This document shows, piece by piece, positions 16,567-25,611 of a stretch of DNA of 26,727 bases (position 1 is the stretch's first letter; every line of letters starts with the position of its first letter). Under the pieces are notes generated by a model that ran no database searches, was not told the origin of the DNA, and saw only the letters and a list, made by a program, of their open reading frames with translations. This DNA is from an uncultured bacterium. Lineage in GTDB: Bacteria; Cyanobacteriota; Cyanobacteriia; Thermostichales; Thermostichaceae. The stretch is from contig CAZONZ010000002.1 of the NCBI GenBank assembly GCA_964581005.1, forward strand, positions 1 to 26,727, given 5' to 3'. Made by a program: the position numbers and the translations under genes.

Positions 16567-17904
16567 TCATAGGCTAACCAACTTGTTTTCCCTGTTAGTT
16601 TCGTAGTAGCTACGCTTCTCCCAAAGGAGCAACTGTGTCTCCTTGGGAGGCTTGTTAGGGTAGGACTGTTTCAACTTGCGCTTGGATACTGCAGTATCTC
16701 CGAATGTTGCAGATGTGCAATACTCGAATAGATCTTTTTTACTGTTCCGCTTCCGAATGATCCGCGATTCCACGTTCTTGAATCCGTGAACCCTGAGCGA
16801 TTCCTCGTAAAGCGTTGGTGTATCAACCAGGATGCCGTAAAAGGTGCTGTTCCCAATAATGTAGTAAACCTCAGCTCCAGGGTTAAGAATGTTTCGGATC
16901 ATTTCAATGTGTCGATCTATATCGTAAAAATACTTCTTCACATAAAGGGACAGTAGCTCACCGTTCTTGCCGTCAGATGCAGCAATCTCACTTACCGTCT
17001 GAGTAAGGGAGGGTATAGAACAATCGTGGGTCGGCTCCCAAGTGGTAAGGCGACTCGTGGCAATGCCCCATGTCCCACCAATCGCTTGCCAGTCCAATTC
17101 GCCAGCTTCTCGCGCCTCAGTCAAAAATCCGAGCCAGAACATATAGGGCCTCAACTCACGAATGTAGCTGATCCGGTTGGGGTAAGGAGGAGAAGTGACA
17201 ATCGCATCAAACTTGCCCCCGCTCTCGAATGGCTCTGAGCTATCGTGAAGAATAACTTCAGCTTGAGCGGATAGATGTCTGGATGCATCGGCAATAAATA
17301 TCTGCGCGAAGCTCTTAAAAGACAGAATGATCTCATTCAAAGAATAGGCTTTCGTATCGTTGTGGAAGGAGACAGAAACGTGATTGAACGCTGCTGCAGA
17401 ATACTCGATAGCAGTCCGAGCGAAGGCGATCCAGAGCAGGGCAAACAAGCCTGACTCAAGAGGTACTCCAACCTCCTCAAGAAGAGCTGATCGAAGTCTA
17501 GCTAGGCCATCTAAGGTGTCTTTGCTCCACCATCGCTCAATATTCTTGAGTGGCGGCACCCACAAGTTGGTATTTGCCAGGGAAACTGCACTATTACTTA
17601 CCCGCACAACAGCAGAACGGAGGGAGGCTGCTTCGTCCTCAGTAAGGTTCGTGAGCTTCGCATTGCCTAACCACACTAAAAACGGATTAATGTCGAAAAG
17701 AATGCTGGAGTAACCAAACTCCGCAGCGGCAACTCCGGTTGTAGCCGTCCCTGAAAAAGGATCAAGAATGCGGCAACCTGTGGGTAAATCTTCGATGATT
17801 TCACGGGCAAGCTTAACGGAATAAGCTGGTGTAAGACGTAGCCAACCGTGCCGCCCTAATGATCGGTTGTGCTTAAATGTGTAATCTGATCGCTGGGTAA
17901 TCAT
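16567..17904 (-). CDS. Amino-DNA methyltransferase, probably N4-cytosine, alpha-class motif order
   Basis: Motif I (ILDPFSGTATT) near the N-terminus, long insert, then motif IV (VTSPPY); later IIGNS motif; ATGA overlap with the upstream gene. Confidence 0.88.
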   Translation of the reverse strand: MITQRSDYTFKHNRSLGRHGWLRLTPAYSVKLAREIIEDLPTGCRILDPFSGTATTGVAAAEFGYSSILFDINPFLVWLGNAKLTNLTEDEAASLRSAVVRVSNSAVSLANTNLWVPPLKNIERWWSKDTLDGLARLRSALLEEVGVPLESGLFALLWIAFARTAIEYSAAAFNHVSVSFHNDTKAYSLNEIILSFKSFAQIFIADASRHLSAQAEVILHDSSEPFESGGKFDAIVTSPPYPNRISYIRELRPYMFWLGFLTEAREAGELDWQAIGGTWGIATSRLTTWEPTHDCSIPSLTQTVSEIAASDGKNGELLSLYVKKYFYDIDRHIEMIRNILNPGAEVYYIIGNSTFYGILVDTPTLYEESLRVHGFKNVESRIIRKRNSKKDLFEYCTSATFGDTAVSKRKLKQSYPNKPPKETQLLLWEKRSYYETNRENKLVSL

Positions 17905-18695
17905 TGGGGTCGTAGTAAAGTCTCCAAAATAGCTTCGATCTCACTTCGAATGGCGACGCTGTTCATTTCAAAGAATCTGGCAAGATCGTAGCCAATAATT
18001 GCATCCATGAAATCGTAAAGCGAAGCCAAAGGACCGGAACCTTGAACGCCAGTAAGAATGCCGCAGCGACTGTTGCGATAGCGGAGCACGATGTCGGTGT
18101 CGATCTGGCTGGAGAATACTGCAAACACTGGGAGGTAGCCGTGAGACCATGCGACAGCAGCATTGTCAATATCGGCATTCTGCCGCTTAGAATCCTTGCT
18201 CTTATAGCCCTGTCTCACCTCAAAAACTGCGCCAGCACTTGGGGTTCTTGGAATCTCAAGTTGTTCGCAATAATCCGCAAGCCACTTCTCTACACGCCCA
18301 CGCACAACGGAATTTTCAATGTCTGCCAAACCGATCCGTCCATCGAGTGAAAGCGTCTTCAACTTTCCAGACGGGGTTGTTGCCGTGTAGGACCAAGTGG
18401 CCAAATCACGATCAGAATATCCTATGGAATCAAAAAGCACTTCGCGGAAGATTCTCTCGCATCCGATCCCAATTTGTCGGTAAACCGAGGTCATTCCTCC
18501 CGCTGCCTTGTGTGCTGCATACATGAGGTCTGAGTCAAGACCAATCCACGAATAGAAAGGGTCGCTTCCGTAAAGACTCTTGAAGCCCACCAGATCCAAT
18601 CCTGTTTCACGGGTTGAAGTTCCGAATTTTGGGGTATAATCGGCGCACTTCCGTATTGGGTCGAGGAAGATGTTGAGGTACTTGGATTCAGACAT
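17901..18695 (-). CDS. Putative type II restriction endonuclease (PD-(D/E)xK-like)
   Basis: 264 aa coupled to an MTase; candidate catalytic elements GCE, SLDG and FEVR. Family not recognised with certainty. Confidence 0.68.
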   Translation of the reverse strand: MSESKYLNIFLDPIRKCADYTPKFGTSTRETGLDLVGFKSLYGSDPFYSWIGLDSDLMYAAHKAAGGMTSVYRQIGIGCERIFREVLFDSIGYSDRDLATWSYTATTPSGKLKTLSLDGRIGLADIENSVVRGRVEKWLADYCEQLEIPRTPSAGAVFEVRQGYKSKDSKRQNADIDNAAVAWSHGYLPVFAVFSSQIDTDIVLRYRNSRCGILTGVQGSGPLASLYDFMDAIIGYDLARFFEMNSVAIRSEIEAILETLLRPQ

Positions 18696-18730
18696 TCAGA
18701 AGGGTGGGCGATGGAGATTGGATCCTAACG

Positions 18731-18955
18731 CTATTTCTTACGGAGACGATAGGTGATCCGGCCTTTGGTCAGATCGTAAGGAGTCAACTCGACCTTGACT
18801 CGATCCCCAGGCAGAATCTTAATGTAGTTACGACGGATCTTGCCGGAAATGTGGGCTAAGACGTTGAAGCCATTGTCGAGATCGACGCGGAACATGGCAT
18901 TCGGGAGGGACTCGGTCACCGTCCCCTCCATCTCGATCGAATCTTGCTTGGACAA
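18731..18955 (-). CDS. infA: Translation initiation factor IF-1
   Basis: [23 protein letters not shown]...[35 protein letters not shown]. Confidence 0.99.
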
Positions 18956-19162
18956 ACAGAACCTCCTGAGAACGATACTGTCAACGGATCCATGACGACC
19001 TAAGTTCAGATCCCGCTTCCTATCTCCTGCAAGAGCACAGCACGATGAAGGGATCGAACCTGCAGCTGGAATGGGGAAAGCGGGTCAAGCCTTAAACCGC
19101 TACTATATTAACTCTGTGAGCGAATCAAGCCGATCGAGTCGCAGGAATTGAACTCAAGAAAC

Positions 19163-19732
19163 TCAGGACTCGTGGTGGTTCGAGTTTGAGTTCACTAAAG
19201 ACATGAGGTTGTCATACACTTCATCGACGGGACGATTGCCATCGATCTGAGAGAAGCACTGCTTGGCTGCGTAGAAATCGATTACCGGCTTAGTCTGGTT
19301 GCGGTAAACCTCCAAACGATGCCGGATCACAGACTCCTTATCATCCGCCCGCCCTCGATTTAGCAACCGATCCACCAAGATATCGTCCGGGACATGCAGA
19401 TCGATTACATGATCATAGGATTGGTCCAATTCGGGCAAGAGGTGATCAAGGGCCTCCGCTTGCGCCAAGGTCCGAGGAAAGCCATCTAAGATCCATCCGT
19501 CCGATGCAGAAAGCAACTGACCCCGAACCATCTCAATCAGCACTTGATCAGGCACCAGATCGCCAGCATCCATATAGGATTTGGCTTGCAACCCCAGAGG
19601 TGTTTCGGCGCTAACTTCGGCCCGGAGCATATCACCTGTCGAGATCTTGCGAATCTGCAGATCGTCGGCTAGCTTCTGGGCTTGAGTTCCTTTGCCCGCT
19701 CCGGGGGGGCCTAAAAAAATCACACGTGACAC
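19163..19732 (-). CDS. adk: Adenylate kinase (short-LID type), GTG start overlapping the secY stop
   Basis: P-loop [33 protein letters not shown]. Confidence 0.98.
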
Positions 19733-21033
19733 TACTGTTTCACCATTCCTTCATAACGTTGCGAGATCAGGTAAGTCTGAACTTGCTTGACCGTTTCGAT
19801 CGCCACCCCCACCAAGATCAGCAGCGATGTTGCCCCCAATCCCTGAAACGTGGTGATCCCAGTTGCCCGTTCCACTGCTGTCGGAATAATCGCCACCGCC
19901 CCCAGGAATAATGCCCCCAGCAACGTCAAGCGATTCAAAACTCCCTCAAGATACTCAGCCGTAGCCTTCCCTGGCCGGATCCCTGGAATACTTGCCCCCA
20001 CTTTTTTGAGATTTTGAGCCACATCCACTGGATTCATGATCAGCGAAGCGTAAAAGTAGCTGAAAAACAGGATCAACGTAAAGTAGGCAATCACGTAAAA
20101 CCACGAACTGGGAGCCAGCAGATTCGCAAACTGGATCAAGAAGGTGTTTTGAGAAAACTGAGCGATCGACGCGGGCAAAAACATCACTGAGGTTGCAAAG
20201 ATGATCGGCAACACCCCCCCTTGATTCAACCGCAAGGGCAGATAGTCTTTCCGCTCCCGGAACAACTTGTTTCCCACTTGACGCTTGGCATAGACGATCG
20301 GGATCCGCCGATTCCCTTCCTGAACAAACACAATCCCGACGATCATGACCAGGAAGACAATCACCAGCAAAATGATCCCACCGATCCGACTGCTATCCGC
20401 CTGAGCCAGGTTGATCGTTTGACCCAAGGCTCGCGGCAAGCCTGCCACAATGTTGACAAAGATCAGCAGCGAAGGCCCATTGCCAATACCGCGCTCTGTG
20501 ATCACCTCACCCAACCACATCACAAACATTGAACCTGCAGCTAGAGCCACAGTAGTTGTCAGGACAAAGGCCAATCGATTGGGGTTGGTGGTGTAGTTTT
20601 GAGCCCACAAGGATAAGCCTAACCCTTGAACGATGGCCCACCCCAAGGTGACGTAGCGTGTGTATTGCGAGATCTGCCGCCGTCCCTGCTCTCCCTCATG
20701 CTTCTGCAGATTCTCCAAATAGGGAACCGCTGAGGCCAATAGCTGCATGATGATCGACGCATTGATAAACGGCAGGATCCCTAAGGTAAAGACCCCTAAG
20801 GCTGAGATACCGCCACCGGAGAAAATGTCCAATAACCCAAACACGGGGCTGTTACGCAAGTTGGCCGCAAATTCAGCTCGATCGATCCCTGGCAGAGGGA
20901 TGTAGACGCCTAAGCGGACCAGCAGCAGCAAGCCCAATGTCAGGAGAATCCGTCCCCTTAGCCCAGCAGCCTGAGCCGCTTGGAGGAAGGATGTATCTTG
21001 GTTGGAGGAGTTAGAACCGCGTGAATTGACCAT
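19732..21033 (-). CDS. secY: Preprotein translocase subunit SecY; start ATG 21033 (ORF track 21120)
   Basis: [42 protein letters not shown] and [11 protein letters not shown] motifs. Confidence 0.98.
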
Positions 21034-22506: not shown

Positions 22507-22548
22507 TTTAGATCTTTCGCTTTAGATCTTTCGCTTTAGATCTTTCGC
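22507..22548. repeat. Tandem repeat, 3 x 14 bp TTTAGATCTTTCGC
   Basis: Three perfect adjacent copies in the rplR-rpsE spacer. Confidence 0.97.
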
Positions 22549-22593
22549 CCCCTCTCGATCATCTGGATACGTATGATCGGTCGGACCCTTTGA

Positions 22594-22677
22594 TCGGTTG
22601 TGATCTGTCGGTTGTGATCTGTCGGTTGTGATCCATCGGTTGTGATCCATCGGTTGTGATCCATCGGTTGTGATCTG
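22594..22677. repeat. Tandem repeat, 6 x 14 bp TCGGTTGTGATC(TG/CA)
   Basis: Units 1, 2 and 6 end in TG; units 3-5 end in CA; no spacers. Confidence 0.97.
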
Positions 22678-22695
22678 TTGGACTTCATAAATCCA

Positions 22696-23070: not shown

Positions 23071-23613
23071 CTACTTTTTCTTACCAGACTTACCAGCTTT
23101 GCGACGAACAAACTCCCCAGCATAACGGATCCCTTTGCCTTTGTAGGGCTCCGGTGGGCGCATACCCCGAATCCGAGCTGCAGTGTTACCCACAATCTCC
23201 TTGTTGATCCCCGTGACAATCACGTTGACATTGGCTTCAACTTTGATGTCGATGCCGTCTGGGAAGGGGATCCTGACAGGATTGCTATAGCCCACGTTCA
23301 AGATCAAGGTTTTGCCTTCGGTAGCAGCCCGGTAGCCAACCCCCTGGATCTCTAGGCGGCGCTCGAAGCCGGTTGATACGCCCTTGACCATGTTGTCTAC
23401 AAGCGTGCGACAGAGGCCATGCATTTCGTAGGCTTTGCGGGTTTCATCGGCCCGATTGACGGTGAGAGTTTGATCGACCTGCTCCACCTTGACCTGGCGA
23501 GGCAGGCTGCGGGATAGCTCTCCTTTTGGACCCTTGACGGTCACTGTGCTGCCCTCAATCCGGACATCCACCTTGGGCGGGAGCGGAATCGGGCGTTTAC
23601 CAATCCGAGACAT
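23071..23613 (-). CDS. rplF: 50S ribosomal protein L6
   Basis: [28 protein letters not shown]. Confidence 0.99.
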
Positions 23614-23667
23614 GATTAGACTCCAACTCGATCAACATGATGGGCAAGAACAGACTGAGGCCAAGCG

Positions 23668-24072
23668 CTAGTAGACATAGCACAACACCTCACCGCCGAT
23701 GCCCTGCTGGCGAGCATCTCGATCAGTCATGATCCCGTGCGAGGTTGAGATGATCGCAATGCCAATCCCCCCTAAAACGCGGGGCAATTCTTTCCGATTT
23801 TTATAAACCCGCAGACCTGGACGGCTGACCCGCTTCAGATCGGTGATGATCGGTTTGCGGCCTCGACCTTTATATTTCAACCCCAGGATCAAGTTGAGAT
23901 TGATCCCTTCGCCAGTTTCGCTCACCTCGGAGATAAAACCTTCCTCCAGCAACACTTTCGCAATACTGCGTGTCATCCGGGTTGCTGGAACGGCAACGGT
24001 GGTGTGGCGAGCCATCGTTGCATTGCGGATGCGGGTGAGCATATCAGCAATTGTGTCGTTGGTGTGGGCCAT
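23668..24072 (-). CDS. rpsH: 30S ribosomal protein S8; start ATG 24072 behind GAGG (ORF track 24198)
   Basis: [56 protein letters not shown]. Confidence 0.99.
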
Positions 24073-24151
24073 AGGATGGGCTACCTCATTGGGGTGTCGT
24101 GGAGTTGTTTTTTGAGTGGGGTGGTCGAATCGATCGTGTTTGGCGTTGGGT

Positions 24152-24541
24152 TCACTCAGGAACGGTTGGTCGCTGGAATGTTTTTCTCTCAAACACATGA
24201 GGGATTTCAGGATGAAGCCACAAAATACTGTTCCACGTGAGATTCAGTAGCTCCATGACTTCTTCCAAGCTAACTCTGAGATCGAAATCCTCCTGTGGGT
24301 GAACCCAGATCTCCGTTCCTTTCGGATCAGGAGCGTTTTTGTAGCTGACAAGAGCATAATGCTTACCTGATTGGGATTGAATTAAGGCACCTTGAAATTC
24401 ATCAAGCTCGTCATGTTGATCAGTGAACTCAATATGGCTTTGTCTGTTCAGATCATTGGGCAATTCCCGAACAAGAGCAATGGATAAGTCCAGTCCTGTT
24501 GGCCATTCATTCAGAGGTAGCTGAAGTTTCTGATCAAGCAT
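24152..24541 (-). CDS. Hypothetical acidic protein, candidate immunity/antitoxin
   Basis: 129-aa ATG ORF starting 3 nt after the upstream ORF stop; about 22 D/E versus about 10 K/R; mixed alpha/beta pattern; fills the rplE-rpsH gap. Confidence 0.6.
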
Positions 24542-24544
24542 GAG

Positions 24545-24874
24545 TCACACCTGAGTATTCCGAGTCAGGATAACCTGTATCTTTGCAAAACCATCTTCGA
24601 GACGTACTCCTTCTCGTGGGCCTGACCAATCAGCACGACTAGGAGGTGTCCCAGAATCAGGTTGAAATTTTGCCATAAATTCAATTCCTCTTTTCCCCTG
24701 CGGCAACTGGCCCACATATGCCTTGACCTTAGGAAAATCACTACTGTGGGAATTGTGGGCTGGTTTTCCCCAGATCTCACCCGTTTGTTGCTGAAGTTGA
24801 GCAATTTCAGGGGTTTGTGTTGGTGATTCGCAACGATGAAATGGGCCATAAGGGTAAAGCTCCGAAGAAGACAT
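24545..24874 (-). CDS. Hypothetical protein, candidate minimal ADP-ribosyltransferase-fold toxin
   Basis: 109-aa ATG ORF 24 nt after the rplE stop, with AGGA upstream; FHR...helix...TGEIWG...VKAY...GIEF pattern. Confidence 0.55.
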   Translation of the reverse strand: MSSSELYPYGPFHRCESPTQTPEIAQLQQQTGEIWGKPAHNSHSSDFPKVKAYVGQLPQGKRGIEFMAKFQPDSGTPPSRADWSGPREGVRLEDGFAKIQVILTRNTQV

Positions 24875-24898
24875 CTTTTACGCTTGTATTCCTAAGGG

Positions 24899-25441
24899 TT
24901 AGGAGGCAAACGGCATACCAAAAGCTTTCAGTAGAGCTCGACCTTCTTCGTCGGTGAGAGCAGTCGTAATGATCGACACATCCATGCCTCGGATCTGATC
25001 GATTTTGTCGTACTCGATCTCTGGGAAGATCAACTGCTCGCGGACCCCTAAGGTGTAGTTACCATGTCCATCGAAGCTTTTCGCACTCACGCCTCGGAAG
25101 TCGCGGATCCTGGGAAGAGCCACATTCATCAGTCGATCGAGGAAAGCGTACATCCGTTCCCGTCGAAGGGTGACCATCAAGCCTACGGGCATTCCTTTCC
25201 GGATCTTGAAGCTGGCGATGGCTTTCTTGGCACGGGTGATCACGGGTCGTTGGCCTGCGATGGTGCTGATCTCGGTTACCGAAGACTCCAAGGCTTTCGC
25301 GTTTTGAGAAGCGTCGCCGAGGCCGCGATTCAAGACGATCTTGTCCAGCTTAGGCACTTGATGGATGTTTTTGTATCCCATCTCCTGCATGAGTTTGGGA
25401 ACGATCGTGTTGTGGTAGAGAGTGTAGAGACGTTGTGGCAT
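24899..25441 (-). CDS. rplE: 50S ribosomal protein L5
   Basis: [59 protein letters not shown]. Confidence 0.99.
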
Positions 25442-25611
25442 GGTGGTTTCCTTCCTGGGCTCTGGGCTTGGTCAGAGCAAGTGGACTAGAACAGGTGGGC
25501 TAGCGATCAAATGGACTCAAGTTCATCAAGAGATCTAGATCTATAAGGAGCCAAAAGCGCGAACGGTCTGGAGCCATAAACGGCTTTGTCCAGAGACACA
25601 ATGGGCATGGA

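Follow-up and report, generated by a model that had tools for sequence, protein, structure and literature searches.

The spc operon of an uncultured cyanobacterium of the family Thermostichaceae (GenBank assembly GCA_964581005.1, contig CAZONZ010000002.1; the 26,727 nucleotides analyzed here are called the window) carries two small genes, designated X and Y, between rplE and rpsH. We consider it probable that X-Y is a horizontally acquired toxin-immunity cassette in which X has an ADP-ribosyltransferase (ART)-like fold, with an addiction-type role as the most likely one. An ART-fold polymorphic toxin with its immunity protein is a well-known kind of system; the family is new and its location here is unusual. 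An earlier reading, made from the nucleotide sequence without database searches (the sequence-only reading), had proposed a cassette of this kind. Its toxin/immunity interpretation is supported by sequence comparisons and structure models, and the data that we observed directly are the anatomy of the locus, its foreign origin, the architecture of Rhs proteins that have X as their tip, the linkage of X to Y, the likeness of the X fold to ARTs, and a predicted X-Y interface. X-Y defines an unnamed and widespread toxin-immunity family. Members of this family cap Rhs toxins, form free two-gene modules, or belong to TIR/EAD conflict systems.

The insert between rplE and rpsH

The gene array has the usual order, rpsQ-rplN-rplX-rplE-[X-Y]-rpsH-rplF-rplR-rpsE-rplO-secY-adk, all on the minus strand. 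The host gene upstream of the insert, rplE (ribosomal protein L5; positions 24899 to 25441), has an open reading frame (ORF) that aligns end to end with rplE of 29 relatives. X (24545 to 24874; 109 amino acids [aa]) begins 24 nt after the rplE stop codon and is in frame with rplE, with two stop codons between them. The TGA of X is followed by 3 nt and then by the ATG of Y (24152 to 24541; 129 aa), which has a GGTG motif upstream. From the stop codon of Y to the ATG of rpsH there are 79 nt (24073 to 24151), and the 3' part of this spacer retains the native rpsH ribosome-binding region (GAGGTA) also seen in relatives. The host gene downstream, rpsH (ribosomal protein S8; 23668 to 24072), was recognized from its ORF and by comparison with relatives. 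The coordinates therefore agree with the two in-strand ORFs and the 24-nt and 3-nt gaps described in the sequence-only reading.

Is the pair native to this operon? In 29 relatives drawn from the family, order, and class of our bacterium, 24 to 156 nt separate rplE from rpsH; the distance here is 829 nt. A search of 60 relatives did not find X, and only one of the relatives searched has Y. The GC content at third codon positions is 0.35 in X and 0.42 in Y versus 0.63 to 0.65 in the flanking ribosomal genes. The earlier hand counts of GATC proved exact, with 7 sites (and no CGATCG) in 24152 to 24874 and 26 sites in 18721 to 19860; X alone has 1 GATC in 330 nt versus a window mean of 18.2 per kb. 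On the basis of the rplE-rpsH spacer of the closest relative (L011), compared by eye, the boundaries of the inserted DNA were placed, to within ∼5 nt, at about 24125 and 24881. The insert thus spans ∼755 nt (∼7 nt 5' of X, X, Y, and ∼27 nt 3' of Y), has almost no noncoding flank, and gives way to native spacer again on both sides. No direct or inverted repeats, terminal repeats, target duplication, or integron-like site was found in its flanks. By these sequence comparisons, the X-Y cassette is foreign to the spc operon.

The insert sequence also occurs in stromatolite and microbial-mat metagenomes from three studies. One contig covers 23500 to 25012 (rpsH to rplE), a contig from another study covers 24237 to 25021 (Y, X, and the rplE junction) with 5 differences, and a third covers 24099 to 24698 (Y and part of X). 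With independent contigs from three studies across it, an assembly artifact is not the source of the insert. Across these strains, differences in rplE, rpsH, and X are synonymous only (one in X, with no nonsynonymous change), and Y has two synonymous and three nonsynonymous differences. The cassette has thus stayed intact in diverged strains. Natural populations can acquire and retain a foreign toxin cassette even in the spc operon, whose gene array is among the most conserved known.

In E. coli, rpsN sits at the rplE-rpsH position of the spc operon. Could X-Y be a housekeeping pair with a ribosome-related task, standing in for rpsN or regulating translation? The position of X-Y would fit, and the closest solved fold to that of X, the toxin TreTu, modifies EF-Tu (PMC9825190). 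We nevertheless find such a task, and likewise an assembly chimera, extremely improbable. The housekeeping insert or rpsN substitute was rejected because X was not found in the 60 relatives and because the junctions are short, none of the 29 containing the insert; the chimera was rejected on the independent contigs that span both junctions, and the foreign composition speaks against this whole group of explanations. In addition, none of 58 other X loci lies in a ribosomal-protein operon or near ribosomal-protein genes. With no other locus in such an operon, the position of X-Y looks incidental rather than functional; the link between location and ribosome that the sequence-only reading found suggestive is not supported, and X-Y probably has no ribosome-related function.

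In a consensus scan of 23600 to 25500, neither promoter-like sites nor, on the coding strand, terminator-like sites turned up, in agreement with the first inspection. This result is weak evidence, from sequence, for read-through transcription. Since no promoter or terminator is recognizable and the site lies between rplE and rpsH, X-Y is presumably transcribed with the spc operon. The locus did not appear in any of the RNA runs of the same study that we looked at.

The X family and its pairing with Y

X has 16 close homologs, and a profile search of 1.84 billion representatives returned 729 matches, each a cluster at 50% identity. Because X has these homologs and profile matches and Y belongs to a conserved family, the two ORFs are real genes. 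The X family spans Cyanobacteria, Actinobacteria, Proteobacteria, Chloroflexi, Verrucomicrobia, and other groups. Among the best 150 of the 729 matches, 79 are no longer than 140 aa, and 28 exceed 300 aa, with the domain mostly at the extreme C terminus. Rhs toxins with X at the extreme C terminus occur in five phyla. In genomes of named organisms, the X domain ends ORFs of 1,518 to 2,089 aa with RHS repeats, which carry in addition PT-HINT in Micromonospora, a type VII secretion system signal and DUF6531 in Streptomyces, SpvB and FG-GAP in Aliikangiella, and DUF6531 in Bryobacteraceae; in a gammaproteobacterium, X ends a protein with an RHS core. Among the representatives scanned for RHS repeats, further ones of 309 to 1,319 aa likewise have an Rhs architecture with a C-terminal X; outside that set, others of 1,943 to 3,238 aa also end in X. 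Two proteins of a different build (P0087 and P0094), a TIR (CAP12/Pycsar-type)-RNA polymerase alpha C-terminal domain-X-GUN4 protein and an X-EAD7-HEAT protein, have architectures typical of intracellular conflict systems. The X studied here has no delivery domain, as noted from the start.

Every source annotation that we saw for relatives of X and Y reads "hypothetical protein." Scans against Pfam, NCBIfam, and PADLOC gave no matches for X or Y, a scan of viral contigs found no X relative, and literature searches for toxin-antitoxin modules inside ribosomal operons and for the X motif yielded nothing relevant. The genome from which the window comes encodes at least one large Rhs-repeat protein (contig C167, 3192 to 5649; an open frame of at least 1,242 aa), whose C-terminal tip is not X.

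A Y-family ORF lies directly downstream of X in 50 of the 58 loci, Rhs-fused copies included, at distances of −62 to +71 nt and usually with a 4-nt overlap; at one further locus, the Y-family gene is placed divergently. Together with the X homologs at Rhs C termini, this linkage supports the toxin/immunity proposal. In two metagenome-assembled genomes (MAGs) of Acaryochloridaceae (L053, 3009 to 3503; L054, 5980 to 6285), X is broken by an in-frame stop, located at one shared profile position, and the downstream Y is intact. In a relative from the same order as our bacterium (G023), a solo Y-family gene without any X remnant upstream (L009, 1471 to 1845) represents an orphan immunity gene. Toxins commonly decay in this way, with the immunity gene kept.

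Do X and Y bind each other? In the complex model, a check suggested by the sequence-only reading, the pair scored 0.78 compared to 0.00 for the best control. Among solved complexes, 58 of 80 reached the score mark, as did 2 of 110 mismatched pairs; these counts are only rough since our own alignments were used. The predicted interface joins X residues 14 to 15, 17 to 20, 35 to 39, and 49 to 55, which are the most conserved positions, to Y residues 43 to 48, the invariant acidic loop (D-x-L-D) that contains the invariant Asp44. X and Y thus resemble a polymorphic toxin and its cognate immunity protein in that X stands at the extreme C terminus of large delivery proteins, a small downstream gene covaries with X, and the two products bind directly, the last by prediction only.

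The model of Y, which is a confident one (pLDDT, 87.9), consists of a sheet and two helices. No structural relative was informative: Foldseek found nothing significant in the PDB, and neither TriTu, the immunity protein of TreTu, nor any other solved fold was matched convincingly. No helix-turn-helix or ribbon-helix-helix match was found in the model, and Y has no Pfam domain, known antitoxin domain, or DNA-binding domain. With two small genes, a 3-nt gap, and a complex model that passes, X-Y shares features with type II toxin-antitoxin modules, from which it departs in that Y has no DNA-binding domain and the pair has no promoter-like site of its own.

Predicted fold and candidate site of X

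The X model, also confident (pLDDT, 87.6), comprises a strand, a helix, and then six strands, and it has the split beta-sheet core of the ART fold. For X, Foldseek likewise found nothing significant in the PDB, and a search of AFDB clusters returned only its own uncharacterized family. A Foldseek-independent search of 48,161 chains produced a list drawn almost wholly from the ART superfamily, with TreTu as the best structural match, consistent with the ART-like fold that had been proposed. Other matches were the ART-like domain of CNFy, Tpt1/KptA, TreX, CARDS toxin, diphtheria-type toxins, pertussis toxin, scabin, many PARPs, DarT, ParT, RhsP2, Tne2, TccC3, and ExoS. An Atlas shape search pointed to LXG toxins with the Pfam domain TreTu_C (TM score, 0.59), and the language-model neighbors of X were Tox-ART-HYD1 (0.88), Tse2, Arr, and PARP clusters, all below 0.9. 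These two approaches, which are partly independent, agree with an ART fold.

Sequence methods gave a different picture. Hidden Markov model (HMM) searches of PDB sequences with two X profiles found nothing relevant, and Pfam had no match for X at an E value of ≤10 and none for 72 family members at ≤1. As these methods connect X to no ART family, X belongs to neither TreTu_C nor Tox-ART-HYD1/HYE1, and the link to the latter suggested in the sequence-only reading is not supported. Tox-ART-HYD1 (PF15633) and Tox-ART-HYE1 (PF15634) are, like X, small ART-type tips of polymorphic toxins, but membership would call for an invariant strand-1 His, whereas in the X family this His is not conserved and the adjacent Arg is.

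Conservation was counted in an alignment of the 72 family members. Q20, G63, F66, and W83 are kept in all 72, R14 (on the first strand) in 71, Y53 in 66, E65 in 64, E33 in 63, and H13 in 58, with H13 replaced by Y in nine members, by F in three, and by V in one and gapped in another. Catalytic triads of the ART superfamily lie on strands 1, 2, and 5 and are of the types H-H-h, H-Y-[QED], and R-[ST]-E. Of the H-Y-E site first proposed, H13 is thus replaceable, and Y53 and E65 stand as plausible site residues; an R-type, TreTu-like site, R-Y-E perhaps, fits these sequences better. The NAD+-binding residues of TreTu are R6 (strand 1), E12, S25, H31, F41, and W68 (PMC9825190). The spacing of R14, Q20, S/T31-E33, Y53, and W83 in X appears similar, a likeness that we infer from spacing and not from superposition. 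An R-Y-E site has been reported for TreThr, R-Y-E and R-[ST]-E types have been described for Rhs ARTs, and among Rhs- and type VI secretion system (T6SS)-linked ART toxins there are R-type active sites whose second or third residue is atypical (PMC13617354).

One potential complication is that the scaffold may serve another chemistry. X could be an NAD+ glycohydrolase (as in Tne2/Tse6), a phosphotransferase (as in KptA/Tpt1), or an enzyme of unrelated chemistry rather than a protein or RNA ADP-ribosyltransferase. We judge this unlikely. In its favor, Tne2, Tpt1/KptA, and the CNFy domain (which has no confirmed ART activity) are among the fold matches of X, the residues that the family conserves (R, Q, S/T, E, Y, E, W) do not cleanly match any canonical triad, and TreTu itself has an atypical site (PMC9825190). 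Most of the fold matches, the best one included, are however true transferases, and the strand-1 Arg with the conserved Y and E of X resembles the R-Y-E and R-[ST]-E types of Rhs ARTs (PMC13617354).

TreTu/TriTu, from Rhs-main of Salmonella Typhimurium (PDB 7ZHL/7ZHM; Pfam TreTu_C, PF24691), is the known system most like X-Y. Both toxins are minimal ART-fold domains of roughly 100 to 113 aa at Rhs tips, with an Arg on strand 1 and an immunity gene directly downstream, and TriTu covers the catalytic face of its toxin (PMC9825190), as is predicted for Y from the complex model. Stand-alone TreTu_C genes exist too, for example in Gloeobacter, just as there are free-standing X genes. In contrast, the two show no sequence relationship that we could detect: when the X family and the TreTu_C alignment were compared by hhalign, the probability was 0.05% and the E value was 0.84. 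The best local register of this comparison, a hint only and not significant, pairs Y53 with a Phe of the TreTu family, G-I-E-F with Y-V-E-F, and W83 with a Trp. The signatures also differ, with [YF]-H-R-x-E-S-P-T-Q-T, W-G, A-Y, G-I-E-F, and W in X versus G-R-W-M, E, S-G-T-T-H, Y-V-E-F, and G-W in TreTu. X is probably a further minimal ART of the TreTu-like group, and a search for its target would be worthwhile.

True TreTu-family toxins are also found as stand-alone pairs in cyanobacteria: Gloeobacter kilaueensis has a free-standing gene for a 104-aa TreTu_C protein (L093, 1094 to 1800) with an overlapping downstream ORF that may be an immunity gene. TreTu_C had no match in the genome of our bacterium.

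Tre1, TreX, Tre23, RhsP2, TreThr, and Tse2/Tsi2 resemble X-Y in combining a C-terminal toxin with a downstream immunity gene, and TreX and RhsP2 are among the fold matches, but these toxins have larger domains and belong to other sequence families. Unlike such Rhs- and T6SS-linked toxins, X is free-standing here, as it is in about half of the family representatives that were listed. DarT/DarG and ParT/ParS are, as is X-Y, intracellular two-gene modules with an ART-fold toxin, and DarT and ParT are weaker fold matches; they differ from X-Y in gene order and in the mechanism of neutralization. DarG is a macrodomain hydrolase.

The copy of X studied here is intact and keeps all near-invariant residues other than T68: just after the invariant G-I-E-F strand, it has Ala (codon at 24671 to 24673) where 66 of 72 members have Thr. 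On this sequence difference, the toxin may be attenuated. Is the cassette then kept mainly for Y, as a shield against X-type toxins delivered by Rhs proteins of neighbors in a dense mat, with X attenuated or decaying? Besides A68, the decay of X and persistence of Y elsewhere (the stops in L053 and L054 and the solo Y in L009) would fit, and the sample comes from a mat or stromatolite community. We doubt this explanation, since X is intact with its other near-invariant residues kept and the strains of the three studies show one synonymous and no nonsynonymous change in X compared to three nonsynonymous changes in Y. This X also has a 3-residue loop insertion (residues 41 to 43) common to 14 of the 72 members.

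Proposed role and genomic setting

From these data, we infer a picture of enzymatic activity, target, toxicity, cotranscription, and role. X would be a stand-alone copy of a minimal (∼100-aa) toxin domain that other bacteria carry at the Rhs C-terminal tip, with a fold nearest that of TreTu, the Rhs toxin that modifies EF-Tu. Most likely, X employs NAD+ to modify, or just to consume, an essential cytoplasmic molecule, and R14 (strand 1), Q20, S/T31, E33, Y53, E65, and W83 are its candidate site residues. Y would bind X 1:1, laying its invariant acidic loop (D44-x-L-D47) over the conserved face of X and so blocking the site, and is probably translationally coupled to X. In this cell, X-Y is most likely a selfish, addiction-type module expressed from the host operon. 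Protection from phage, or from the same toxin when mat neighbors deliver it, may come in addition; these roles are not mutually exclusive. X-Y in the spc operon offers a clean natural example in which to study the exploitation of essential operons by selfish modules.

Other free-standing copies lie in varied places. In Chroococcidiopsis, X-Y stands beside ribbon-helix-helix, helix-turn-helix, and pRha genes, and other free-standing pairs lie near HicAB, ParE, and Phd genes. In Altericista sp. strain CCNU0014 (L041, 4645 to 8063), X starts 12 nt after a gene for a BREX-type BrxC/D ATPase, and the Y domain is fused to a long tetratricopeptide repeat (TPR) region in a 592-aa protein; this X-Y-TPR arrangement may be a sensor-linked defense version. 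One might propose on this basis, and on the copies found among toxin-antitoxin genes and the fusions of X to TIR and EAD7/HEAT conflict-system parts, that X-Y is an abortive-infection, antiphage module. For the copy in the window, this seems distinctly unlikely: it has no PADLOC match and no sensor or regulator in the locus, and a module expressed constitutively from a ribosomal operon would lack an obvious trigger.

In a Sandarakinorhabdus MAG (L057, 4142 to 7547), the start of X overlaps the end of aspS (aspartyl-tRNA synthetase) by 4 nt, and Y is followed by a PPK2 gene. Here, too, the cassette lies directly behind a translation gene, the second such case. Conceivably, promoterless ART-type cassettes lodge in essential, highly expressed translation operons (between rplE and rpsH or behind aspS), where the host can neither silence nor easily delete them, with a toxin that targets the translation machinery as TreTu does; we regard this broader idea as improbable.

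Three further observations concern the window beyond the insert. GATC is strongly overrepresented throughout (486 sites, or 18.2 per kb, ∼4 to 5 times the random expectation at 50% GC), and GCGATCGC (HIP1) occurs only twice. The rplR-rpsE spacer (22520 to 22690) contains two short GATC-centered tandem arrays, one with about six copies of the 13-nt unit GATCACAACCGAT/CA and the other with three copies of AAAGATCTAAAGCG. After the adk and infA region, on the operon strand (16567 to 18695), a 264-aa ORF without a Pfam match overlaps a 445-aa ORF with matches to N6/N4 and D12-class DNA methyltransferases. These ORFs fit a restriction-modification pair added on to the operon; such a pair would be its second foreign passenger.
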